Shown here: positions 9,519 to 26,757 of the stretch, piece after piece
Numbering within the stretch: position 1 is the stretch's first letter
Layout of the letters: every line of letters starts with the position of its first letter
Assembly: GCA_965262995.1 (NCBI GenBank)
Contig: OZ253574.1
Location: forward strand, 994,513-1,058,512
Direction: 5' to 3'
Length of the DNA: 64,000 nucleotides
Source of the DNA: Leptonemataceae bacterium
GTDB taxonomy: Bacteria > Spirochaetota > Leptospiria > Leptospirales > Leptonemataceae
Translations under genes and position numbers: made by a program
Notes under the pieces: generated by a model
The model's database searches: none
Told to the model about the DNA's origin: nothing
The model's input: only the letters and a program-made list of their open reading frames with translations

Positions 9519-10328
9519 TTATGCAAAAAGTTCAGACCAAGTTTTTTCTATATTCTGACTCTCCATAAATGAAGTTCCTATCAAAACAGCGTCTACAAGA
9601 TTCTCTACTTTAAGGTAATTTGATTTTTCTTCTATCCCCGATTCTGCCACTAGTATTGTATTCGGTAGATTTTTTTTTATGCTTGGAGATAATTCTAATG
9701 TAAGTTCCATATTCATTTTTAAAGTATCTAAATCTCTATGATTAATACCAATAATTTTTGGCTTCAAATTAAGTGCTATGTCCGCCTCCTTTGTATTATG
9801 AATTTCTACAAGTACAGCGAGACCTAATGTTGTAGCTAAAAGATATAACTCTGTAAGCTGGGCAGTAGACAGCATACTTACGATTAATAAGATAGCATGA
9901 GCACCTGCATGCTTTGCCTCATAAATTTGGAGGGGGTCAATGATAAAATCTTTACGCAAGATAGGTAAACCCGCCCTACTAGCTAGATGTATATCATTCA
10001 AATCGCCTTGGAAATATTTTTTATCCGTTAATACTGAAAGGGCTGAAGCCCCGCAATTTTTGTAAATAAGGGATAACTCTTCTGGATTATAATCAAAACG
10101 TAAAAGACCACGAGAAGGACTAGCCTTCTTACATTCTGCAATAACACGAGGCCATGGTTTTGCTTGAGAAACAGCAGATTGAGACTTAGATGAAATAGCT
10201 AGTTCAAAAACAGAACTTCTATCTTCAGAGGGACAATTATCTTTTAGGAAACGACTTTTAGCTTGGAGGCGACTAACTTCTTCTTTTTTGGTTGTATATA
10301 TTTCTTTAAGCAAAGACACACAAATCAA
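9519..10328 (-). CDS. trpC: indole-3-glycerol phosphate synthase
   Basis: 'VIAECKKASPSRG', 'SVLTDKKYFQG' and 'LRKDFIIDPLQI' signatures. Confidence 0.9.
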   Translation of the reverse strand: MICVSLLKEIYTTKKEEVSRLQAKSRFLKDNCPSEDRSSVFELAISSKSQSAVSQAKPWPRVIAECKKASPSRGLLRFDYNPEELSLIYKNCGASALSVLTDKKYFQGDLNDIHLASRAGLPILRKDFIIDPLQIYEAKHAGAHAILLIVSMLSTAQLTELYLLATTLGLAVLVEIHNTKEADIALNLKPKIIGINHRDLDTLKMNMELTLELSPSIKKNLPNTILVAESGIEEKSNYLKVENLVDAVLIGTSFMESQNIEKTWSELFA

Positions 10329-12243: not shown

Positions 12244-12533
12244 GATGCAAATTATTGTACCTATGACAAAAGATTATAGTACTTCGTAAAGCTAAATATA
12301 ACGTACATCCTAAAAACTTACTCACATCAATCAAATACAAAGTATAAGGAATGGAAAGCTCTTTTTACTTTAAGTAAACAAAGTCAAAAAAGCCCAATTC
12401 ACGCCATAATACTTATTTAGCAACACCTGATTCTTAAAAACATGTGAAAACATATAAAAATAATCTTTAAGGCTTAACTATATAAATAACCTTGATAACT
12501 AAGACAAGGTGCATCTACAGTTTTTCTAAAAAC

Positions 12534-14324
12534 TCAAATAGTGCTCAATAACAATTCCCGTGCATGTTCTATGACAATGGAACCATGCGTTTCGCCACCG
12601 AGCATTCGGGCTAGCTCTTTGAGCCTTTCATTTTCCTGAAGTTGATTAATTTGAGTATAGGCGCGGCCATCTAAATATTTTTTTACAACACAAAAATGAT
12701 GATGTGCTAATCTTGCTATTTGAGGTAAATGAGTAACCACGATAATTTGACTGTATTCTGATAACTCCTTCAAACGACTACCTATGGCATGGGCTATCTC
12801 TCCACCAACACCTGTATCTACTTCATCAAAAACTAGACTAGCTAAGGGGCGTTGTTTGAAAAAAATACTTTCAATAGCGAGGGAAATTCTAGATAATTCG
12901 CCACCACTAACAATTTTACGTAAGGGTCTTGGGGTCTCTCCAGGATTAGAAATTAAAAGAAACTCAACCCTATCATAACCTTTTTCATTTAAAGAATATT
13001 TATTATTCTTAGATTCTGTTATGGTCTCTCTATTGAATTTTTCTGAAGACGTATCATCACATATATCACTTTCTTGATTATATTTAATTTCTGTATTTAA
13101 TTCTACTTCTCTTTTTATATTTATTTTTATTTTAGCACCTGACATACCTAAGTGCTCTAGCTCTTGGATTAATTTTGCTTCGAGTTTAGGTATAGAGGCC
13201 CTACGCAAACGAGAAAGCTCCTCTGCTTTTTGATGTAGTACTTTATGAATTTCTTCTAATTCTTTTTCTAAGCGAAGAAGTTCATCTGTACTCATTTCAA
13301 TAGAACCTAGCTCATTCAAATACTTGTTTTTTGTATTTATAACTGTTTGCGTACTACCACCATATTTTTTATGTAAACGATGGTAGGAAGAAATTCGTTC
13401 ATTCAAGTCTTCCAAACGTTCAGGGGAAAATTTAAGTAAGTCTTTTTGATTTCTCAAATAATCTGCACTTGCTTCTAAAAGATAAGAGGCTTCTTGCATA
13501 TTCGCAATAAACTCTTGTGCTGAAGGAAGTAATTTTGCATAGGGTTCTAGCATTTGTACGACAGTATTTAATCTATCTAAAATAGCCTCCTCATCCTCGC
13601 GCAATAATTCATAACTATTACAGATATCTTGAAATAAACGCCCGCTATTTTGAATGAGAGCTTTCTCATTATTTAATTCTTCAAATTCTCCCATAATAGG
13701 ATTTAAATCTTCTATTTCATTAATACAAAAATGTAAAAACTCTCGCCTATTTTCACGCTCTTCACTTTCTAAATTTACATTTCTCAATCTTGTTTTAATA
13801 CTGGAGTAACGATGGTATACTTCTGAAAATTTATTAGATAATTCCTCTGTTTTTGAAAAATGATCTAGAAATTCAATATGACTTTCGGGTTCTAGAATAC
13901 GCTGATGTTCATGTTGCCCATGTATTTCTATAAGATGATTTGCAAGATTACGAATTTGCTGAAGGTTGCTAAGCTCCCCATTACAATAAATACGACTACG
14001 TCCTTCTGTAGTGATTTCGCGACGCAATTCTAAATAGGGGCTATTTAAATCCGCCTGATTGGGAATTAGCTTTTTGATTTCTGGATTATTAACTTCAAAG
14101 ACAGCCTCTATGGTAGCCTTATGGGCACCATTTCGCACAAGGCCATGAGCCGTCCTTGCACCAAGGACCACATCCAAAGCATTCATAACCAATGATTTGC
14201 CTGAACCTGTCTCACCTGTAATTATATTTAAACCTCGTCCAAGCCTAATTCTCTGTGTTTCTATGATTCCAAAGTTTTCTATTTTTAATTCTATCAACAT
14301 ACTAACCATAAAATTAGTATACAT
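12534..14324 (-). CDS. recN: DNA repair protein RecN
   Basis: Walker A 'GETGSGKS', long coiled-coil middle, signature 'SGGELSRISLA', Walker B 'LVFDEVDTGV'. Confidence 0.92.
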   Translation of the reverse strand: MYTNFMVSMLIELKIENFGIIETQRIRLGRGLNIITGETGSGKSLVMNALDVVLGARTAHGLVRNGAHKATIEAVFEVNNPEIKKLIPNQADLNSPYLELRREITTEGRSRIYCNGELSNLQQIRNLANHLIEIHGQHEHQRILEPESHIEFLDHFSKTEELSNKFSEVYHRYSSIKTRLRNVNLESEERENRREFLHFCINEIEDLNPIMGEFEELNNEKALIQNSGRLFQDICNSYELLREDEEAILDRLNTVVQMLEPYAKLLPSAQEFIANMQEASYLLEASADYLRNQKDLLKFSPERLEDLNERISSYHRLHKKYGGSTQTVINTKNKYLNELGSIEMSTDELLRLEKELEEIHKVLHQKAEELSRLRRASIPKLEAKLIQELEHLGMSGAKIKINIKREVELNTEIKYNQESDICDDTSSEKFNRETITESKNNKYSLNEKGYDRVEFLLISNPGETPRPLRKIVSGGELSRISLAIESIFFKQRPLASLVFDEVDTGVGGEIAHAIGSRLKELSEYSQIIVVTHLPQIARLAHHHFCVVKKYLDGRAYTQINQLQENERLKELARMLGGETHGSIVIEHARELLLSTI

Positions 14325-14374
14325 AAATTACGCAATCAAAAATTATGTTTTTAAGCAGAATATAGTGAATTTTT

Positions 14375-17300
14375 TTACGTTTTTGGGGCGGATGGCTCGG
14401 CGGGCGATTTAGATTTTTTCTCTTTATATTTTACAAACTCATCTAATCTGTTTTCCCACTTCTTTTTGTCCGTTAGCCAAAGACTCCATTCTTCATCACT
14501 AATAAATAAATTTACGTCGTCCTCTTTATTTTCGATAGCCTTTTCGATATGTTTATATTCGATATGTTTATACATAATAATTCCCTTGCGAGCAATATTA
14601 TAAGCCCCGTTGGCATCTGCATCACAAGGTAGGCCTTTCTCACTTTTTCGAGAATCAAAATGGTTTCCTTTTTCGTCTCTTACACAAGAAAGTAAGAAAT
14701 TATCATCTTGGTTTTGTTTAGGGTCGCCGGAATTTCTAATTTGCTGTATAAGCTCAATAGCAAAGCGAAGTGATTCCCAAGCTGTGTGTTCTGAAATTTT
14801 TGATAATTGGACACCCTTTTTATCCTCTTCAATTTGCATTTTTAGAGATTTTTCTTTATCAAAGTCCTCAAATAAACCTTTGAGCATTTGTTTTACATTA
14901 AAAAATTCTGGTTCATAAATACCTTGATCATTTTTTTTATTTCTATATCTCTCAAGAGCTTCACCGTTTTTACCAGACCATAGCCTCCAAGTCTTTTCTT
15001 GTTTGTCCTTATATTGAAAATAATAATCTCCGTTTTTATCAATAGCTATTTCTTCAAACGAGTCAAGAATCTGTTTTTTGATATTTTCTTCAGTTCCTGT
15101 TTTTAGATAAATCGTTTTGTACCAACCTGTAGCTGGGTCAGTAATAGAAGTATAATTTGCCCTTGTATAGAGCATGATTCCAAATTGCTTCTGATTTTCA
15201 ATGTCTTCAAATTTTTTTACAAGGGGAGTGAGTTGAAGGGCTTTGGAAACCGAGCCTATCCCCACTTTGGCATTTTTATCTACTAAAAAATTCAGCTTCT
15301 TGGCTAGGGCTAATTCAAATTTTTGATAAACATTTTTTTCAAATTTTTGACGACCTCTCTTAAAACCTTGGGTTAGACCCTCTAACACAATAAAGGTTGG
15401 CTTAAAATTGCCATTCTCATCTTTACATTTTTTAAGAATCTCATGTATTGCAAGTGAAATATAACCTTCTTTTAAAGGAGCAATTTTATCCTGTGACAGC
15501 CATTCTAATTTTTGCTGTTTTCTTTTATCTGCTCTGTCTTGAATACTTTCTCCATAATTTTTTCCATTGATGCTATCAAAATGCCCCTGTTCTTTTATAT
15601 TGCATTCTTTATCTACAAGAGAGTAATAGATAAGATGTTTTTCACCTCTATCTATTCCTAAAAATTGCACATCTTCTTTTAGAAAGGTTTCGTTTACGAG
15701 TTTATTGACTGGTTTAATATAATCCTTTGGGGTTTTTCCCGACACTTGGACATTGTCATAATTCAAGGATATAGGAAAATGAAATTGTATTTTTTCTTCT
15801 GTAAAACGTTTATTTTTTATTATATCATGTTTAAAAACACTAGCGATTTCCCCATCAGTACGGCGTTTAATAGGTTCGTTTTTGGGGTGTAGTGTAGTCT
15901 GAGGAAAAGCTACTTTATTTCTAAAAAATATTTTAGCATTAGCTTGAAGTTGTATATTACTATTTTCATGAAAAAGATTTTCAAAATATAAAGTTTGCAA
16001 ATTAGGAAAACTATTTTTACTTTTTACTCCACGATTTTTAGAAAAATCTTTGCTATAAATTTGAAATAAATAAAGATTCTTTTTCTCTATATTATTTAAT
16101 AATTCTTTCCAATTGATAGGTGTAAATTCACATTCATAACTTTCTTTTAAGATTTGATCTAAATCATTGTGAAATTCACTTTTGTCTGAATATTTTTTTT
16201 TAACAATACTATTCAGTTTTGGATACTTTTCAAGATAAGTTTTATTACCCGTTGTCATCTTATAATCACGGATAAAGTTTTGGGCTTTTTCTATAGCTTC
16301 TATATTATTTCTTTTAGACATATCTTGATATTTTTCACCGTAATAAGATATGAATCCCTTTCCTAAAACTGTTTTAGATGTTATATTTTTTAAAATGAGA
16401 CGACCTGCATTTTCGGTCGGAGATTGATAAATAGGATTACCTTCTTTTCCTGTATCAAAAATTTTTCGTTCTATTAAAATTCCGACAAAGTATTCATCAG
16501 ATTTTTTGATAATAACACTTCCTTTGATTTTTTCTTGTCCGTCAGGCCAGCCACCAAGTAAATTTGAATTTTCAAAATTAAGCTGTATCTTATTTTCTTT
16601 TGCATCATCTTGGGGCTTTTTTGTCAGATAATTTCTTATGGTATCATAAGCATTAGTCCAATGAATATCTTTGGGGCGTAAAATAGCATCTAGCATATTC
16701 GAAAACTCAGCATCTAAAGCACCGCCACTACTCTTTTTTATTTTTGACTCTGAAACATAAAATAACTTTACGGTTCTTACAATCTCAATACAGGCATCTA
16801 AAAATTCTTTGATTTTTAAGATATTTTCCTCTTTCTTAAAATCTTGCATTACAATAGCTTTTTTATTTTTTTGAAATTCGTTGAACTGTGCTTCTAAATC
16901 ACAACAGATAAGAGAAATGAGAGTTTTACTGGGCTTGTCTTCTGATTTTATTACGTCTTTGTACCTCTCATTTTCTAAAACACTATTTTTAAAAAAAGTC
17001 TGCGTCCAATCATTTTCTAGTTTTGAGGCCTCATCTATAATTTCAAATAAAATTGAAAGCTGAACCGTATCTTTGAATTCGAAGCCTTTCTTTTTTTTAT
17101 CGTAGCGGGCTATTTTTTTATATTTTTCTTTAGTGGCGTTTTCTAATTTATCTTTGCTTAAAAGAACATTTTTTACTTTTTCTGCGAGAGCTTGAAAGTT
17201 TGCTAAATACTTGTTCGATATTTTCGATAATGCCGATTTAGACCAATGCACGCTATCCCAATCTTGATTTGATGTGAGCCAGTTTATGAGAGTATGTGAG

Positions 17301-18472
17301 TTTGTTTTATCTTCGACAAATTCTGTATTAAAATAGTTATCACCCGCCTTAAAAATGTTTTCTAAAACACCTTCTACACTCAATACAGATGCAGTATTTT
17401 TGGGCTCTTTCTCTTCTTGTTGCTCTTTTGTGTCGTATTGAATGGCATCAAAAAGTGCTTTTTTATCCCCGCAACCAATCTGTTTGTATAAGGTTTTAAA
17501 ATAGAGTAGTTTACCTTTCTTTGCTTCTTTTGTAACCAGTTGTTGGTTGTATAAATTGATTACTAGATTATACCCTCCTATGATGCAATTGTATTTTTCT
17601 ATCTCTTTTTGAGAAAGACACTTCGAGAAATTATCTATATTAAATATCGCCTCTGAAATATCTTCTGATTCAATCATATCCCCCGAACGAGTATCTTTAA
17701 TTTGGGTTGTTTTACCTTTATCTTTGAGAGAAGTGCGGGCGAGTTTGTAAGAATCTTTATTTTTTTCAAACTGTACAGAGTTTGAGCAAAATTTGCGTAA
17801 ATTTTCATGCACGATACGAGTGGCTATAGCAGTTGCTTTTTCTTTTTCTGTTTCATAATAATTGTTTCTGTTTTGATTATAAGTTGCGAAATATCCCCAA
17901 AAACCTTTAAAAACACTTAAATGCCCGTTTTCGCCTGTATATTCAGCAGAGTTTTTTTCGCATAGCTTTGCTAATTCTTGTATGTTTTGTTTTAAATACT
18001 CGAGCAACCCAGCTTCAAATAATTTCTCTATCCCTATTTTTTTGAAGATAGCTTTTCCTTTCCCTTTGAGTTGTGGGTTTTTGGTAACTTCATCTGCTGC
18101 TATGGAATAGGTTTTGCCTATTTCTGTTCTTAATTTTTTTTCTATTGTTTCTAATTCTTTTTTAGCTTGGTCATTAGAGGCTTTGTATGTTTCATAATAC
18201 TCGTTGAAATTAATTTCCTTAGCCGCTTTTGATTCTAAACTCGCATCGATCACCTGTTCATGCACCTTATCTAAAATAGGCTTTAAATCATTGTAGGCCT
18301 TAGCTATTTTTTTATCTTGGGCGATTATTTCTTTGAGAGATTCTACCATTTCTTTAGAGCTTACAACATCTCCATTTTTGCCCACCAGCTTCAACTCAAA
18401 CCGTAAAGTCTTGCTCAAAGAATATACGTTTGTAAACTTATCCCATATACTTTTTTTGTTTGCTATACTCAT
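14375..18472 (-). CDS. cas12a: type V-A CRISPR effector Cas12a (Cpf1)
   Basis: 1365 aa. RuvC-I 'FLGIDRGEKHLIYYSL', RuvC-II 'FIVLEGLTQGFKRGRQKFEKNVYQKFE', RuvC-III 'LPCDADANGAYNIARKG'. WED/pre-crRNA RNase region 'LHPKNEP...HDIIKNKRFTEEKIQFHFPISLNY'. No HNH domain. Adjacent to an array whose repeat carries the Cas12a handle. SD AAAGGAG precedes the ATG. Confidence 0.95.
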   Translation of the reverse strand: MSIANKKSIWDKFTNVYSLSKTLRFELKLVGKNGDVVSSKEMVESLKEIIAQDKKIAKAYNDLKPILDKVHEQVIDASLESKAAKEINFNEYYETYKASNDQAKKELETIEKKLRTEIGKTYSIAADEVTKNPQLKGKGKAIFKKIGIEKLFEAGLLEYLKQNIQELAKLCEKNSAEYTGENGHLSVFKGFWGYFATYNQNRNNYYETEKEKATAIATRIVHENLRKFCSNSVQFEKNKDSYKLARTSLKDKGKTTQIKDTRSGDMIESEDISEAIFNIDNFSKCLSQKEIEKYNCIIGGYNLVINLYNQQLVTKEAKKGKLLYFKTLYKQIGCGDKKALFDAIQYDTKEQQEEKEPKNTASVLSVEGVLENIFKAGDNYFNTEFVEDKTNSHTLINWLTSNQDWDSVHWSKSALSKISNKYLANFQALAEKVKNVLLSKDKLENATKEKYKKIARYDKKKKGFEFKDTVQLSILFEIIDEASKLENDWTQTFFKNSVLENERYKDVIKSEDKPSKTLISLICCDLEAQFNEFQKNKKAIVMQDFKKEENILKIKEFLDACIEIVRTVKLFYVSESKIKKSSGGALDAEFSNMLDAILRPKDIHWTNAYDTIRNYLTKKPQDDAKENKIQLNFENSNLLGGWPDGQEKIKGSVIIKKSDEYFVGILIERKIFDTGKEGNPIYQSPTENAGRLILKNITSKTVLGKGFISYYGEKYQDMSKRNNIEAIEKAQNFIRDYKMTTGNKTYLEKYPKLNSIVKKKYSDKSEFHNDLDQILKESYECEFTPINWKELLNNIEKKNLYLFQIYSKDFSKNRGVKSKNSFPNLQTLYFENLFHENSNIQLQANAKIFFRNKVAFPQTTLHPKNEPIKRRTDGEIASVFKHDIIKNKRFTEEKIQFHFPISLNYDNVQVSGKTPKDYIKPVNKLVNETFLKEDVQFLGIDRGEKHLIYYSLVDKECNIKEQGHFDSINGKNYGESIQDRADKRKQQKLEWLSQDKIAPLKEGYISLAIHEILKKCKDENGNFKPTFIVLEGLTQGFKRGRQKFEKNVYQKFELALAKKLNFLVDKNAKVGIGSVSKALQLTPLVKKFEDIENQKQFGIMLYTRANYTSITDPATGWYKTIYLKTGTEENIKKQILDSFEEIAIDKNGDYYFQYKDKQEKTWRLWSGKNGEALERYRNKKNDQGIYEPEFFNVKQMLKGLFEDFDKEKSLKMQIEEDKKGVQLSKISEHTAWESLRFAIELIQQIRNSGDPKQNQDDNFLLSCVRDEKGNHFDSRKSEKGLPCDADANGAYNIARKGIIMYKHIEYKHIEKAIENKEDDVNLFISDEEWSLWLTDKKKWENRLDEFVKYKEKKSKSPAEPSAPKT

Positions 18473-18574
18473 TTTTTTCTCCTTTTTACTTCCCCCTAAC
18501 TTAATTTGGAATACTTACATTTATATTTTCTCGCACCATCATCATACCATACAAGAGAGGTGTGATATTTTAGA

Positions 18575-18603
18575 AATTTAGAAAACCTTTCTCACCTTGG
18601 CAA
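18575..18603 (-). promoter_or_regulatory. candidate sigma70-type promoter for cas12a, between the last repeat and the cas12a start
   Basis: Minus strand reads TTGCCA, a 17-nt spacer, then TAAATT, about 100 nt upstream of the ATG. Sequence inspection only. Confidence 0.3.
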
Positions 18604-18625
18604 GCGAATGAGACAACACTCTCCC

Positions 18626-20888
18626 ATCTACAACAGTAGAAATTTATTTAGAGTTCCTCACACAGACGGAAGAGTTAAACAAGCAAAATCTACAACAGTA
18701 GAAATTTATTTAGAGTTCCTCACACAAGTGGAAACGATAAACGCGGGCAGATCTACAACAGTAGAAATTTATTTAGAGTTCCTCACCTCACATGCCATGA
18801 CTTGTCCAAATTAATCTACAACAGTAGAAATTTATTTAGAGTTCCTCACAAATAGGTATACTGGAGAGTGAATCCACATCTACAACAGTAGAAATTTATT
18901 TAGAGTTCCTCACTAGTGTAGTGCCTAAAAGGGTCGATACGCTATCTACAACAGTAGAAATTTATTTAGAGTTCCTCACAGTGGTAGCAATGGTACAAGT
19001 CACAGATCTACAACAGTAGAAATTTATTTAGAGTTCCTCACTCTTATGAGTACGGAAGTGAGTCATCTATCTACAACAGTAGAAATTTATTTAGAGTTCC
19101 TCACACTTTCTTTTTTTGGGATCGCTGTCGAATCTACAACAGTAGAAATTTATCTAGAGTTCCTCACTGACTTGGAAGGAGAAGCGAACAGAAATATCTA
19201 CAACAGTAGAAATTTATTTAGAGTTCCTCACAAATGGCAAAAGAAATAACATTATTAAGATCTACAACAGTAGAAATTTATTTAGAGTTCCTCACCTTGA
19301 CTCTCATCTATGCTATCACTATAATCTACAACAGTAGAAATTTATTTAGAGTTCCTCACTAGAGGGGACTACAGTATAATACATGTATCTACAACAGTAG
19401 AAATTTATTTAGAGTTCCTCACTTTCGCAGAACTACTGGCAGAACTAACATATCTACAACAGTAGAAATTTATTTAGAGTTCCTCACCCAATATAAGGAA
19501 CTGAAACTCATTCATATCTACAACAGTAGAAATTTATTTAGAGTTCCTCACTGATAGAGTAAACAACATGGCTGGCAATAATCTACAACAGTAGAAATTT
19601 ATTTAGAGTTCCTCACAGCCAAATAATTCTCACCCAACCTCCGATCTACAACAGTAGAAATTTATTTAGAGTTCCTCACTCTTAGTATGCCTAGAGCTAA
19701 CGAAGCATCTACAACAGTAGAAATTTATTTAGAGTTCCTCACGGGGCATTGGACAACACAAAGAGACGCAATCTACAACAGTAGAAATTTATTTAGAGTT
19801 CCTCACGTGTTTTTTCGAATTCTAAAAATAAGTATCTACAACAGTAGAAATTTATTTAGAGTTCCTCACTATGACTGACTCAGAAGTTATTGCTTTTTAT
19901 CTACAACAGTAGAAATTTATTTAGAGTTCCTCACTGTGTTTAAGGATTCTTATAACTATGCCATCTACAACAGTAGAAATTTATTTAGAGTTCCTCACCC
20001 TGAGATGAAATATAACGTAAGAAAATATCTACAACAGTAGAAATTTATTTAGAGTTCCTCACCACCACATTAAAAGTAGAGAGTATCTATCTACAACAGT
20101 AGAAATTTATTTAGAGTTCCTCACTACAAAAAAACTTATAGAGCTAAAAAATATCTACAACAGTAGAAATTTATTTAGAGTTCCTCACTAGTAAGTGGGG
20201 TCGTTCGCAGGTGTAAAAATCTACAACAGTAGAAATTTATTTAGAGTTCCTCACTGCAACATCTACACTCAATTCAGCAATATCTACAACAGTAGAAATT
20301 TATTTAGAGTTCCTCACTTGTAAACTGTCCCACAGTTCATTTAGATCTACAACAGTAGAAATTTATTTAGAGTTCCTCACAATTACATGACGTGGAAATT
20401 TTTTAGTATCTACAACAGTAGAAATTTATTTAGAGTTCCTCACAATTACGGACCTATTGCGAATTTTAATGATCTACAACAGTAGAAATTTATTTAGAGT
20501 TCCTCACACAAAAGCAGATATTTGGAAAAGTTTGATCTACAACAGTAGAAATTTATTTAGAGTTCCTCACACACTGCCCTTAAATATAGAATTTATTGAT
20601 CTACAACAGTAGAAATTTATTTAGAGTTCCTCACATATAACATTATAGGGAAATACAATTATATCTACAACAGTAGAAATTTATTTAGAGTTCCTCACGT
20701 ATTGCTACTATTGCATTTAGTGAGATCTACAACAGTAGAAATTTATTTAGAGTTCCTCACTAGCAAAATTCTTTAGTAAAGGTGTTGGCGTTAAGATCTA
20801 CAACAGTAGAAATTTATTTAGAGTTCCTCACCCCAATTTATCTATTATAAAAATCTACAACAGTAGAAATTTATTTAGAGTTCCTCAC
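18626..20888 (-). CRISPR. type V-A CRISPR array, 36 repeats of 36 nt and 35 spacers
   Basis: Plus-strand repeat is ATCTACAACAGTAGAAATTTATTTAGAGTTCCTCAC. The transcribed minus strand reads GTGAGGAACTCTAAATAAATTTCTACTGTTGTAGAT. Spacers are mostly 26-30 nt. Exceptions are a 35-nt spacer (20761-20795) and a 21-nt spacer (20832-20852). One repeat variant (19132-19167) has TATCTAGAG instead of TATTTAGAG. Confidence 0.98.
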
Positions 20889-21067
20889 CCTATTGACAAA
20901 ATTCAAATAGGAAATTTATGACAAAAAGAAAGGTTTTACTTTCTGAACTCTTTAGAAGGTAAAATTCTTTACTTTTTAAAGACATAAACCATAAAAAACT
21001 CTATACAGTGACATAATAAAGACATCTATTTTATCGTAAAGCATATTAAGACCAAGGTTTGCAAATT
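20889..21067 (-). promoter_or_regulatory. putative CRISPR leader
   Basis: AT-rich 179-bp non-coding segment between the cas2 stop and the first repeat in transcription order. The position matches the leader of Cas12a arrays. Confidence 0.55.
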
Positions 21068-21340
21068 TTACAACATCAGTATCTCTTTATCCTCATTGGC
21101 AGCATATCCAAATCGTTGCACTTTATCAACTGCTCCAAGATGAAAAATTATTACACTATCAGCTCCTGTAAATTTTGATTTATACCTTAAGTTAATTTCT
21201 GTAATAATATTTTCTAAAACTCTTTTACTAAATTTGATTTGAAAAACTGAATACTGAATACGATGACCATACTTTAATAAAAATTTGGAAAAATGTAAAC
21301 GCACCTTATTATTTGAAATATCATAGGCCACAATCAACAT
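21068..21340 (-). CDS. cas2: CRISPR-associated endoribonuclease Cas2
   Basis: 90 aa starting 'MLIVAYDISNNKVR...IQYSVFQ', a ferredoxin-like Cas2 pattern. Directly downstream of cas1. Confidence 0.9.
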   Translation of the reverse strand: MLIVAYDISNNKVRLHFSKFLLKYGHRIQYSVFQIKFSKRVLENIITEINLRYKSKFTGADSVIIFHLGAVDKVQRFGYAANEDKEILML

Positions 21341-21349
21341 AACTATTTT

Positions 21350-22315
21350 TTATATTAGAAATCGAGGATATTCCTCCAAAGACTTATTTTTCATAAAGGC
21401 CCTATAAAAATTTTGAATATAAATAAAAATTTCTTCTTTGTATTCCATTAAAGCTTCTGCAAAAAGAAAAGTATACTTTTCACTCTTTTTATATTTCATT
21501 TCGTATTGCTTCCTTAAAAAAATAAAATCGCTTGGGTCAATTTGCTTTAAAGAAAAGGCCTTTCGTAATTTTGCATCAATGATACAACGAAATGGTTCTA
21601 TAAGATCGCAAACCAAAGATTTTCTTTCATAAAAAGGTCTATGGAAAACTCCTTTATACAAATCAAAACCATAAAGACGTAAATGACTTTCTATAAAACT
21701 AAAAAGATACGTATAACCCACATCTAAAAGTAAATTAATAATATCATGACGGGTACGAGGGAGACGACGTTGCCAATCAAATCGTTCAAAGTAGGCTTGA
21801 AAAAATTCTTTACTACAATACCCCTCCACCCCCATTAAAGTTTGATTGTCGTTTGTTTCTAAAACAAAATCTAAATTATGTTTTAATTTATTTATAGCGT
21901 TTTTTAATTTTAAACTTTTGCCACGAATGTCTTTTAAATTTTTTAATTGATTCAAAATTTTATTATGCACAATAATCTTAGAAAGTAAAAAACTTTGGGA
22001 ATGTGTATACTGCTTTTCTCTAAGTAAATAATTTCCTTCTGTTTGAGCACCCATAACACTATACACACGAAAATTACGACCCATCAACACTGTTATAAAA
22101 CCATAGCTAACAGCTTTACGCAAAAGAACACTTGTAAGGGTTGTATCCCCAATTAAAAATAAAGCAAATATCTTATAGCAGGGTACTTTATTTTCTATAA
22201 GATTTGTATCTGTCTCTCGAATAATCAAATTATCATTTGAAAATTGTAACTTTTGATTTTTCTTTCCATGTATAAAAACAATTTGCTTTTCTTTAAAATC
22301 AGGCAAGGTTAACAT
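21350..22315 (-). CDS. cas1: CRISPR-associated integrase Cas1
   Basis: 321 aa with the conserved Glu in 'LMGVEGYCSKEFF', His in 'GVFHRPFY' and acidic 'DLIEPFR'. Confidence 0.92.
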   Translation of the reverse strand: MLTLPDFKEKQIVFIHGKKNQKLQFSNDNLIIRETDTNLIENKVPCYKIFALFLIGDTTLTSVLLRKAVSYGFITVLMGRNFRVYSVMGAQTEGNYLLREKQYTHSQSFLLSKIIVHNKILNQLKNLKDIRGKSLKLKNAINKLKHNLDFVLETNDNQTLMGVEGYCSKEFFQAYFERFDWQRRLPRTRHDIINLLLDVGYTYLFSFIESHLRLYGFDLYKGVFHRPFYERKSLVCDLIEPFRCIIDAKLRKAFSLKQIDPSDFIFLRKQYEMKYKKSEKYTFLFAEALMEYKEEIFIYIQNFYRAFMKNKSLEEYPRFLI

Positions 22316-22322
22316 ATTTCTT

Positions 22323-22868
22323 TTAACAAATATCGCACAAAGGATTGTAAATACATTCTCGACACTTCCCTTCTATTTGCTGAAAAGAATCTAATAAATT
22401 AAATTTTTTAACTTGAAGCAAATGCCCTTCAAATTTTTTAATAGTGGCATCGTCGGGAATCGGAAGGTTATAGCGTTTATTATCATCTAAGGAGTGAAGA
22501 CATAAGGAATCTACACCAAAACCCATCTCTGTTAGACAAAAGTAATGCGCGTATATTTGATAAAGATAGCCTTCATATATAGTTTTAATTTTACCCTTTC
22601 TCTCAATAATTTTTTTATCTTCTTGATCATAAACATCTATCTTACCGCAAATACCATATTTTTCGGAATAAACGTCTATATTTAGCAAATAGCGATTTAA
22701 AGTGGAGTAACTCCCCTTTTCTATGCTCTCATGCTTGATTTTTCCTTGAATTTGCGAATTTCTGTGATAAAGGCGTGAGTCGTATTGCCCATAAAGTTGA
22801 TGATAATAAATAGAACGCGGACAAAAAACAAAGTCATTTAAATAAGTGATGGGTAAATACGTTTCCAC
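22323..22868 (-). CDS. cas4: CRISPR-associated exonuclease Cas4
   Basis: 181 aa with N-terminal Cys 'FVFCPRSIYY', RecB-nuclease core 'GKIDVY...IIERKG' and C-terminal Cys cluster 'CRECIYNPLCDIC' (4Fe-4S ligands). Confidence 0.9.
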   Translation of the reverse strand: METYLPITYLNDFVFCPRSIYYHQLYGQYDSRLYHRNSQIQGKIKHESIEKGSYSTLNRYLLNIDVYSEKYGICGKIDVYDQEDKKIIERKGKIKTIYEGYLYQIYAHYFCLTEMGFGVDSLCLHSLDDNKRYNLPIPDDATIKKFEGHLLQVKKFNLLDSFQQIEGKCRECIYNPLCDIC

Positions 22869-22930: not shown

Positions 22931-23218
22931 TTAAGTGCTTTTATGATTTGAGGGTGGGATTAGCTTTTTGGAAGCTGAAAAAAATATTTTTTCTTTCAAA
23001 TTTGCTATCGTGACAAATTCCATCAAAGTTAAAAAATCTACGCATTCAAAATCTCCAAAGTTTTGAATGGGGCTCCTTTTGTTTTCTATTTTTTGAACAA
23101 AATTCTTGTCATATTTTTTTGCCCATGAACATACACATTGATAAGGAGTTTGTAAAAGTGCTGCAATTTCATTATAAGTATAAGCACCCTCTCCGAACTT
23201 TAATTCATAGCCTTTCAT
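22931..23218 (-). CDS. small HTH-like protein at the head of the cas4-cas1-cas2 cluster (hypothetical)
   Basis: 95 aa. 'YTYNEIAALLQTPYQCVCSWAKKY ... VDFLTLMEFVTIANLKEK' resembles MerR/VapB45-type N-terminal HTH modules. This is pattern recognition only. No Shine-Dalgarno is present, and the ATG lies 3 nt after a degenerate CRISPR repeat. Confidence 0.45.
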   Translation of the reverse strand: MKGYELKFGEGAYTYNEIAALLQTPYQCVCSWAKKYDKNFVQKIENKRSPIQNFGDFECVDFLTLMEFVTIANLKEKIFFSASKKLIPPSNHKST

Positions 23219-23220
23219 AT

Positions 23221-23256
23221 TTCTACAACAGTAGTAATTTATATAAGTCCCGTAAT
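23221..23256 (-). repeat. solitary degenerate CRISPR repeat (psi-repeat 1) abutting the HTH-like gene start
   Basis: TCTACAACAGTAG (23222-23234) matches the array repeat exactly. The handle half reads AAAUUACUACUGUUGUAGAA versus canonical AAUUUCUACUGUUGUAGAU. The distal half of the repeat is diverged. Confidence 0.8.
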
Positions 23257-26721: not shown

Positions 26722-26757
26722 AAACACAACAATACACATTTATTTAGAGTTTCTTAC
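26722..26757 (-). repeat. decayed solitary CRISPR repeat (psi-repeat 2)
   Basis: AAACACAACAATACACATTTATTTAGAGTTTCTTAC matches the array repeat at 28 of 36 positions. The match is colinear and in the same orientation. The handle hairpin is destroyed. Confidence 0.65.

Follow-up and report, generated by a model that had tools for sequence, protein, structure and literature searches.

An array-first gene order in a type V-A CRISPR-Cas locus of a Leptonemataceae bacterium

Canonical type V-A loci, as in Francisella novicida U112, Acidaminococcus, Lachnospiraceae and Moraxella bovoculi, run in the order cas12a-cas4-cas1-cas2-leader-array. In a 64,000-nucleotide stretch from a Leptonemataceae bacterium (contig OZ253574.1; the whole stretch is called the window below), the effector gene lies downstream of its own array. 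This order raises the question of whether Cas12a, by cutting a shared transcript, controls its own mRNA, as the original prediction proposed, or whether the order has little consequence.

Gene order, assembly and relatives

ORF, family and repeat analyses bore out the proposed position of the array between cas2 and cas12a. Read along the minus strand, the locus runs orf95-cas4-cas1-cas2-leader-array-cas12a-recN, all genes being co-directional:

12534 to 14324, minus strand: recN, 50 nt downstream of cas12a (ORF list, family search)
14375 to 18472, minus strand: cas12a, 1365 aa (TIGR04330)
18626 to 20888, minus strand: CRISPR array, 36 intact repeats (36 nt each) separated by 35 spacers, running towards cas12a
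20889 to 21067, minus strand: AT-rich leader of 179 nt on the cas2 side (sequence)
21068 to 21340, minus strand: cas2 (Pfam CRISPR_Cas2, TIGR01573)
21350 to 22315, minus strand: cas1 of type V (TIGR04329, 372 bits; Pfam Cas_Cas1)
22323 to 22868, minus strand: cas4 of type V (TIGR04328, 204 bits; Pfam Cas_Cas4)
22931 to 23218, minus strand: orf95, which opens the adaptation operon (ORF list)

The two modules are circularly permuted on a single strand, with the adaptation operon, leader and array first and cas12a last. Both gap lengths given in the original prediction were exact, namely 153 nt between array and cas12a (18473-18625) and 50 nt between cas12a and recN (14325-14374). The inversion that it named beside a translocation is excluded because every gene is co-directional; the change was a translocation or a circular permutation. 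No Pfam or NCBIfam match was found for orf95, so its earlier label as an HTH gene is putative.

Short-read assemblies break or collapse in repeat-rich regions such as CRISPR arrays, so that the array or cas12a might have been misplaced in the 2.4-Mb contig. Independent short-read contigs argue strongly against this. Logan contigs from runs X1 and X25 extend from cas12a into the last repeat with zero differences, and the series recN, cas12a, gap, degenerate repeat and last repeat recurs in contigs from several runs and two samples with 0-1 differences. The same contig sets carry the first repeat, leader, cas2, cas1, cas4 and orf95, either joined to this series or separately, and recN, not cas4, follows the cas12a stop. 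A 14.3-kb contig of X2 and a 13.8-kb contig of X4 link recN-cas12a to leader-cas2-cas1-cas4 by way of one collapsed repeat; these joined contigs may reflect assembler simplification and show that the flanks touch a repeat, not how long the array is. Since both cas12a flanks are confirmed independently, as is the cas2-leader flank, the order is not an assembly artefact; we consider misplacement extremely unlikely.

We then compared the locus with 162 related Cas12a loci. None had a co-directional array or adaptation genes upstream of cas12a. The array was downstream in 114 of the 115 loci that bear one, and cas4 followed cas12a on the same strand in 143 of 145 cas4-bearing loci, which upholds the description of the present order as non-canonical. 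More than 1 kb separated cas12a from cas4 in 31 of those 143 loci, and the cas12a/cas4 boundary is a frequent insertion point. Homologues of the cargo upstream of cas4 (orf95, a HEPN/MNT pair, orf329 and orf171) were absent from all 162 loci. A literature search found no paper on an array upstream of cas12a, and a Leptospira CRISPR survey gave no gene order. The array-first order is rare. A synteny comparison had been proposed to see whether it is lineage-wide; the two nearest RecN relatives (77% identity) carry no CRISPR locus beside recN, and as far as can be seen the order is not lineage-wide. As the search brought up no relative that shares the order, its history is not traceable.

Effector, adaptation genes and array

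The Cas12a scored 535 bits against TIGR04330 (cut-off 300), also matched Pfam RuvC_1 and REC1, and aligned with solved Cas12a structures at E values down to 2e-106. Its identity to any other Cas12a in the searched databases was at most about 52%, and an exact-sequence look-up returned no record. The split RuvC nuclease of V-A effectors is present with D941, E1031 and D1286 kept; these residues, together with R1246, are invariant across 28 homologues. The pre-crRNA RNase residues H862, K869 and K886, which we take to be the equivalents of H843, K852 and K869 in FnCas12a, align with the matching motif of a solved Cas12a, and H862 and K886 were each found in 23 of the 28 homologues. The adaptation genes exceeded the cut-offs of the type V families TIGR04328 (cas4) and TIGR04329 (cas1) and of TIGR01573 (cas2), and the reading frames of all four cas genes are intact, with scores above the curated family cut-offs.

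On the sense strand the repeat is GTGAGGAACTCTAAATAAATTTCTACTGTTGTAGAT, which puts transcription of the array on the minus strand, in the direction of cas12a. This 36-nt repeat, present 36 times, ends in the UCUACU-loop-GUAGAU hairpin handle, which also occurs in the arrays of 58 other loci. The repeats are identical in 35 of 36 cases, with a single base change in the remaining one, and the spacers measure 26-30 nt except for the two adjoining the leader (21 and 35 nt). The promoter scan placed a candidate promoter, TTTACG-16-TATTAT, in the leader at 21040-21013. A boxA-like antitermination element in the leader (20984) was rejected, as its 9/12 match is no better than chance, 128 kb containing 105 such sites.

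No spacer had self-targets beyond chance. One spacer (18914-18943) matched exactly in foreign contigs of 25 kb and 11 kb that are otherwise unlike the window and derive from runs X2, X4 and X25. The flank of this protospacer, ..GAGTTTA, reads as a TTTA PAM, in agreement with the TTTV motif in this single case; an exact match to the same protospacer was not found in IMG/VR. An Rfam search of the window returned one tRNA and nothing else, with no match in the locus and no tracrRNA family, and the absence of a tracrRNA is indirectly supported. The locus departs from the order cas12a-cas4-cas1-cas2-array, which is typical of V-A but not defining, in reading cas4-cas1-cas2-array-cas12a. Taken together, the locus is complete and apparently a working V-A system.

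The same evidence bears on whether the locus is decaying, with a rearrangement having cut cas12a off from its promoter and the system silent or being lost. Fossil repeats at 23221-23256 and 26722-26757 within the island point to earlier rearrangements and would fit such a history. However, the four cas ORFs are intact with scores over curated cut-offs, the catalytic residues of Cas12a are kept, the repeats hardly differ from one another, cas12a is preceded by a strong Shine-Dalgarno sequence, and a protospacer with the correct PAM occurs in the same samples. We therefore regard decay as highly improbable.

The array-cas12a gap and its predicted transcription

The boundary between array and effector, and the first terminator-like element past the locus, comprise the following features:

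18596 to 18625, minus strand: spacer 36, terminal and oldest, 30 nt, GGGAGAGTGTTGTCTCATTCGCTTGCCAAG
18560 to 18595, minus strand: degenerate 37th repeat, GTGAGAAAGGTTTTCTAAATTTCTAAAATATCACAC, 21/36 identical and in phase with the array
18473 to 18559, minus strand: unique 87-nt region ahead of cas12a, with an extended -10 candidate and a Shine-Dalgarno sequence
12350 to 12393, minus strand: first terminator-like hairpin past the locus, after recN, dG -10.9 kcal/mol with a U-rich tail (hairpin-plus-U scan)

The repeat at 18626-18661, previously described as the last, is the last intact one, but the degenerate 37th repeat, which starts 30 nt past it, had been missed; the unique DNA ahead of cas12a is consequently only 87 nt. 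Outside the array, about 18 other places in 128 kb reach the score of the degenerate repeat, whose significance comes from being in phase with the array. It has lost the 3' half of the hairpin and is thus not a Cas12a substrate.

The claim that the array-cas12a gap is free of terminators withstood a consensus scan, folding (z = 0.28) and a lenient hairpin-plus-U scan, none of which revealed an intrinsic terminator. Nor was one found in the cas12a-recN gap. With no terminator between array and cas12a, read-through is physically possible, and we consider it plausible from the sequence. A search for RNA runs containing the locus found none. The array transcript is richer in G than in C (C/G = 0.81) and so lacks a C-rich stretch of the kind used by Rho.

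Promoter candidates also occur in the gap. The proposed TTGCCA-17-TAAATT is present at 18603-18575 (9/12 match), with its -10 element inside the degenerate repeat, but the gap candidates as a group are at about chance level; the scan counted 35 sites, where shuffled sequences gave 39.5 +/- 5.7. An extended -10 candidate, TGgTATGAT, lies at 18549-18541. It is the sole such site on the minus strand of 18473-21075, the background frequency being 0.5 per kb per strand, and the chance of one in a 153-nt gap is about 7%. A strong Shine-Dalgarno sequence, AAGGAG, follows at 18484-18479. recN has a candidate promoter of its own at 14369-14342.

These features frame the proposal that cas12a is expressed mainly from a pre-crRNA::cas12a co-transcript and that the effector's own RNase cut at the terminal repeat sets mRNA stability, giving a built-in feedback. 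The terminator-free gap, an array RNA whose composition makes it a poor Rho substrate, the intact handle 153 nt ahead of the cas12a ATG and the conserved RNase residues of Cas12a are all consistent with it. In engineered systems, repeats placed in a UTR and cut by Cas12a alter mRNA fate (PMC9943656). Against it, promoter candidates lie within the gap, the arrangement is unique among the 162 loci with nothing indicating selection, and long arrays usually show falling transcript levels along their length, according to a preprint (10.64898/2026.07.09.737519).

The position of the cut argues further against this proposal. A Cas12a cut had been predicted to define the 5' end of the cas12a mRNA. Cas12a cleaves on the 5' side of the repeat hairpin, so the downstream product would consist of the handle, the 30-nt spacer, the degenerate repeat, the 5' UTR and cas12a. 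The crRNA would stay attached to the mRNA, and the end of this crRNA-mRNA chimera would be set by host trimming nucleases rather than cleanly by the cut. Bacterial translation does not require a defined mRNA 5' end and can use unprocessed polycistronic RNA. With AAGGAG as an internal Shine-Dalgarno sequence, cas12a should be translatable from such RNA without processing, and any feedback could act only through RNA stability. The built-in loop is unsupported. We consider the proposal unlikely.

A related conjecture is that cas12a is coupled in cis to the array. Most of its mRNA would then arise by read-through, and Cas12a bound to the terminal handle at a 5'-OH end would protect or mark that mRNA, so that effector supply tracks pre-crRNA output by a route unlike CreR or tracr-L repression. 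In many canonical loci a lone handle lies upstream of cas12a, and such handles would represent the minimal form of the same arrangement. We rate this conjecture as quite improbable.

The terminal unit could also be read as a CreR-type mini-array that guides Cas12a to repress the cas12a promoter by partial complementarity. Its anatomy is that of V-A creR, in which a repeat with an intact handle, a stretch of spacer length and a second, heavily degenerated repeat precede the cas12a promoter and cas12a (bioRxiv 10.1101/2023.03.10.532045); here the corresponding elements occupy 18626-18661, 18596-18625 and 18560-18595, 87 nt ahead of the ATG. However, spacer 36 had no PAM-flanked seed match in the whole 64-kb window, including the locus and the vicinity of the cas12a promoter, when at least 7 contiguous PAM-proximal matches, or at least 11 of the first 14, were required beside a TTTV or xTTV PAM. 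The unit is moreover no standalone element with its own promoter but the terminal unit of a 36-spacer array, in phase and continuous with it, and decayed last repeats are usual in CRISPR arrays. These observations make a CreR role very unlikely. CreR-like seed matches in the stretches after the two fossil repeats likewise did not exceed chance.

Proposed origin of the order and comparison with known systems

The explanation that we favor, and hold to be probable, is an ordinary active type V-A system with a permuted module order, possibly made by recombination at a repeat-like site upstream of cas12a. In this explanation, the leader promoter would drive a 2.3-kb pre-crRNA. As no intrinsic terminator occurs until after recN, some polymerases would run past the array into cas12a and recN. 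cas12a most likely has its own promoter too, within the 153-nt gap. Read-through RNA would give a chimera of crRNA36, degenerate repeat and cas12a mRNA that host nucleases then trim, and translation through the strong Shine-Dalgarno sequence would be independent of the Cas12a cut. Regulation is probably affected little or not at all by the order.

As to its origin, we envisage that, while the island was being acquired horizontally or later, recombination fused an array repeat with a repeat-like element of the kind that lies ~60-250 nt ahead of cas12a in many canonical loci and is known as a standalone repeat unit (SRU) or CreR. In four canonical loci of our survey (L046, L080, L145 and L156), a lone intact handle ends 62-251 nt ahead of cas12a. 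Repeat-like sequences adjoin cas12a in ~34% of V-A loci, and recombination with terminal repeats has been suggested (PMC10120712). The last intact handle, ending 153 nt ahead of the cas12a ATG, was counted in favor of this origin, as was the absence of the island beside recN in the nearest relatives. On the other side, the recombination model leaves no predicted footprint. A repeat remnant downstream of cas12a, predicted if a circle reintegrated at a repeat, did not rise above background, and the second cas12a copy or fragment predicted by tandem duplication was absent from the window. Rho-dependent termination may occur within the 2.3-kb untranslated array, which also counts against the explanation, and the near-chance expectation of the gap promoter candidates was weighed in the same direction.

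If read-through does feed cas12a, the locus would be a natural counterpart of engineered single-transcript Cas12a designs, and it would suggest a direct test of the role of the widespread lone repeats upstream of cas12a. If the order is inconsequential, it is a curiosity; it would demonstrate that the modules of a V-A system tolerate permutation with their function preserved, and that recombination may take place at the repeat-like site ahead of cas12a. Whatever the order does, the locus supplies a divergent Cas12a with a canonical handle and a TTTA PAM.

Like canonical V-A loci, the present one has four cas genes on a single strand, a leader adjoining cas2, a 36-nt repeat with the 3' handle AAUUUCUACUGUUGUAGAU, a T-rich PAM and no tracrRNA family match. 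Unlike them, it places cas12a downstream of the array and not upstream of cas4, an arrangement shared by 0 of the 162 surveyed loci. An array upstream of the cas genes is known from other CRISPR types, and in the type III-A system of Staphylococcus epidermidis the array likewise comes first; such systems differ in CRISPR type, and their effectors, unlike Cas12a, are not known to process their own pre-crRNA.

With an intact handle ~150 nt ahead of cas12a, then a stretch as long as a spacer and a repeat that has degenerated strongly, the terminal unit recalls CreR mini-arrays (bioRxiv 10.1101/2023.03.10.532045) and the standalone repeat units of V-A loci (Shmakov et al. 2023, PMC10120712), and its position resembles that in L046, L080, L145 and L156. 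In contrast to those elements, it closes a 36-spacer array instead of standing alone, and its spacer lacks a PAM-flanked partial match to the cas12a promoter. Engineered single-transcript Cas12a (PMC6576101) and repeat-in-UTR control (PMC9943656) likewise put effector mRNA and repeats on one Cas12a-cleaved RNA, which here is a predicted co-transcript. Those systems are synthetic and mostly eukaryotic, and loss of cap or tail decides mRNA fate, unlike the 5'-end-independent bacterial translation expected here. [quoted passage not shown] There the guide and the 3' end of the gene overlap, and processing has been shown experimentally, whereas the guides here lie 5' of the gene and processing is putative; what the two would share is a Cas12-family nuclease acting on the RNA that encodes it.

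Gene order and its support

On the minus strand the locus runs orf95-cas4-cas1-cas2-leader-array-cas12a-recN. The ORF list, family scans and a repeat finder reproduced the originally predicted gene and array map, including the gaps of 153 and 50 nt.

Features of the Cas12a locus in transcriptional order
22931-23218, minus, orf95 (ORF list)
22323-22868, minus, cas4 (TIGR04328)
21350-22315, minus, cas1 (TIGR04329)
21068-21340, minus, cas2 (family scan)
between cas2 and array, minus, leader, 179 nt
20888 down to 18626, minus, CRISPR array, 36 repeats of 36 nt (repeat finder)
array to cas12a, minus, gap of 153 nt from the last intact repeat
14375-18472, minus, cas12a (TIGR04330, 535 bits)
cas12a to recN, minus, gap of 50 nt
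12534-14324, minus, recN (ORF list and family scans)

The family scans returned no match for orf95, and its earlier HTH label is unverified. The minus-strand repeat, GTGAGGAACTCTAAATAAATTTCTACTGTTGTAGAT, is identical in 35 of the 36 copies and carries the classical Cas12a handle at its 3' end, which shows that array transcription proceeds towards cas12a. A degenerate repeat (18595-18560; 21/36 identical) follows the last intact repeat after 30 nt, keeping the array's phase, and has lost the 3' half of its hairpin. The predicted gap size stands, but this relic had been overlooked; it leaves only 87 nt of unique sequence ahead of the cas12a start codon. At the other end, the two leader-proximal spacers (20761-20852) measure 21 and 35 nt, all others being 26-30 nt, and contigs from three public sequencing runs (X25, X4 and X1) match the window up to 20857 and then diverge. 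These odd spacers might reflect either an array variant or a protospacer that extends into the repeat.

The locus is present in four public runs that derive from two samples. Contigs from X1 and X25 connect recN and cas12a, across the gap and the relic, to the last repeat without a single difference; separate contigs begin in the first repeat and extend over the leader, cas2, cas1 and cas4. Both flanks are linked by a single contig, via one collapsed repeat (18625/20853 junction), in each of X2 (depth 105) and X4, which shows that precisely these two unique flanks adjoin the repeat. The collapse is probably an assembler simplification, and a subpopulation with its array reduced to a single repeat is conceivable. 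X2 and X4 yielded almost no spacer contigs, though their depths were 105x and 13x. The original prediction had named an assembly artefact as something that would refute it. This is ruled out by contigs of independent runs from both samples, which carry the same flanks and continue after the cas12a stop into recN, not cas4. The array-before-cas12a order is real.

We compared this order with 162 Cas12a loci (80 in genomes of species representatives, 80 in metagenomes and 2 on viral contigs), annotated by tblastn and a repeat detector. The array lay downstream of cas12a in 114 of 115 array-bearing loci (same strand in 113 of these 114), and cas4 lay downstream on the same strand in 143 of 145 cas4-bearing loci, at a median distance of 94 nt; the order is thus non-canonical, as predicted. 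A co-directional array before cas12a was absent from all 162 loci, 130 of which had an upstream flank of at least 1 kb, enough to reveal one. The sole array exception, locus L034, has a divergent adaptation module transcribed away from cas12a. Among the 145 loci, cas4-cas1-cas2 lies upstream of cas12a in just L034, which also has an array there, and L033, in both cases on the opposite strand. Inserts of 1-6 kb occupy the cas12a-cas4 boundary in 31/143 loci (e.g. L016, L021, L057, L110 and L157), a boundary that seems to be a preferred cargo-insertion site in type V-A loci.

The nearest Cas12a relatives share only ~50% identity and have the canonical order. RecN similarity identifies the host as Leptospirales-like, and no CRISPR locus adjoins recN in its two closest relatives by RecN (77% identity). 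The proposed synteny comparison therefore speaks against a lineage-wide rearrangement; as far as can be seen, the island was acquired.

Predicted transcription into cas12a

As originally predicted, no terminator was found between array and cas12a by consensus scan, folding (z = 0.28) or a lenient hairpin-plus-U scan; terminator scans and folding found none between cas12a and recN either. The first good terminator-like hairpin downstream on the minus strand lies past recN (12350-12393, dG -10.9 kcal/mol; hairpin-plus-U scan). Directly ahead of the last repeat, at 18675-18696, the penultimate-repeat hairpin and a spacer starting TTTTGCTT together weakly resemble a terminator (5-bp stem, dG -4 kcal/mol), probably a chance feature. 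Rho-dependent termination occurs in untranslated arrays. Here G exceeds C in the array RNA (C/G = 0.81), which accordingly has no obvious Rho entry site. Because intrinsic terminators are missing in both gaps and the array is poor in Rho entry sites, it is plausible, as a prediction from sequence, that transcription continues into cas12a or even as far as recN; CRISPR read-through could extend to a DNA-repair gene. A promoter-like site for recN is present at 14369-14342. One preprint indicates that interference declines along long arrays (10.64898/2026.07.09.737519).

The candidate promoter proposed in the gap, TTGCCA-17-TAAATT, is present with a 9/12 score; its -10 element falls within the degenerate repeat, and two equal sites occur within the array where a spacer happens to provide the -35 element. 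An extended -10 candidate, TGgTATGAT (18549-18541), is the sole such site on the minus strand from cas2 to cas12a. Both gap candidates are near chance expectation, so neither is evidence by itself.

Cas12a cleaves on the 5' side of the repeat hairpin and remains bound to the product. Because of this cut position, and because the degenerate repeat is hairpin-less, processing of read-through RNA would yield the handle, terminal spacer 36, the relic, the 5' UTR and cas12a in one molecule. Cas12a would then not define a clean 5' end of its own mRNA, as had been proposed that it does, since the cut leaves the crRNA on the mRNA; host nucleases trimming crRNA 3' ends would set that end. Processing would not be required for translation from an internal Shine-Dalgarno sequence, and a strong one precedes cas12a. 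Feedback could operate through RNA stability only. A regulatory reading of the array-cas12a order is possible, the missing terminator being the one feature that points to it.

Signs of function

All 28 homologues compared share the RuvC residues D941, E1031 and D1286 as well as the Nuc arginine R1246, and the pre-crRNA RNase motif (H862, K869, K886) is kept. Spacer 18914-18943 has an exact match (31 nt) in long contigs of X2 (25.4 kb, depth 45), X4 (11.3 kb) and X25, which are otherwise unlike the window and carry TTTA on the PAM side. The target, which has no exact match in IMG/VR, is likely a live one within this community, either a plasmid or a phage. Overall, the locus looks active in its permuted arrangement.

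Repeat-like elements and comparison with CreR

About a third of V-A loci have repeat-like sequences beside cas12a (PMC10120712). CreR, encoded upstream of cas12a by a degenerate mini-array in Moraxella bovoculi and further V-A loci, is built of an intact-handle repeat, a pseudo-spacer and a second repeat that is strongly degenerated; through partial complementarity beside a TTTA PAM it directs Cas12a to the cas12a promoter, which is thereby repressed (bioRxiv 10.1101/2023.03.10.532045). The last repeat, spacer 36 and degenerate repeat of the window have the same anatomy and position. In contrast to CreR, whose defining feature it is, a PAM-flanked seed match for spacer 36 was found nowhere in the 64-kb window, and we consider it unlikely that the terminal unit is a CreR.

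In four canonical loci (L046, L080, L145 and L156) a single intact Cas12a handle stands alone upstream of cas12a, its end 62-251 nt from the gene; in the window the last intact handle ends 153 nt before the cas12a ATG. All four lone handles are candidate creR or standalone repeat unit genes transcribed towards cas12a, and those of L046 (~126-144) and L080 (~9816-9832) have a TATAAT box directly upstream. The window also has a lone repeat-like element at 23221-23256 (25/36 identical, 4/5 stem pairs retained) ending 2 nt upstream of the start codon of orf95, so that a Cas12a handle precedes both transcription units. Near pgi, at the far island edge, is a second fossil repeat (26722-26757) in the same orientation, 28/36 identical. 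Between it and orf95 are a HEPN/MNT pair and two ORFs that have no family matches and no homologues in other Cas12a loci.

The resemblance of the terminal unit to CreR-type elements upstream of cas12a suggests that a lone upstream repeat-like element recombined with an array repeat, which would give the observed junction either by unequal exchange or by re-entry of an excised circle opened between cas12a and cas4. Neither predicted footprint, a second cas12a or a repeat remnant downstream of cas12a, was found, so recombination is an origin that we infer rather than observe. We regard the locus as a real and rare rearranged form of a type V-A system that is otherwise ordinary and apparently active.
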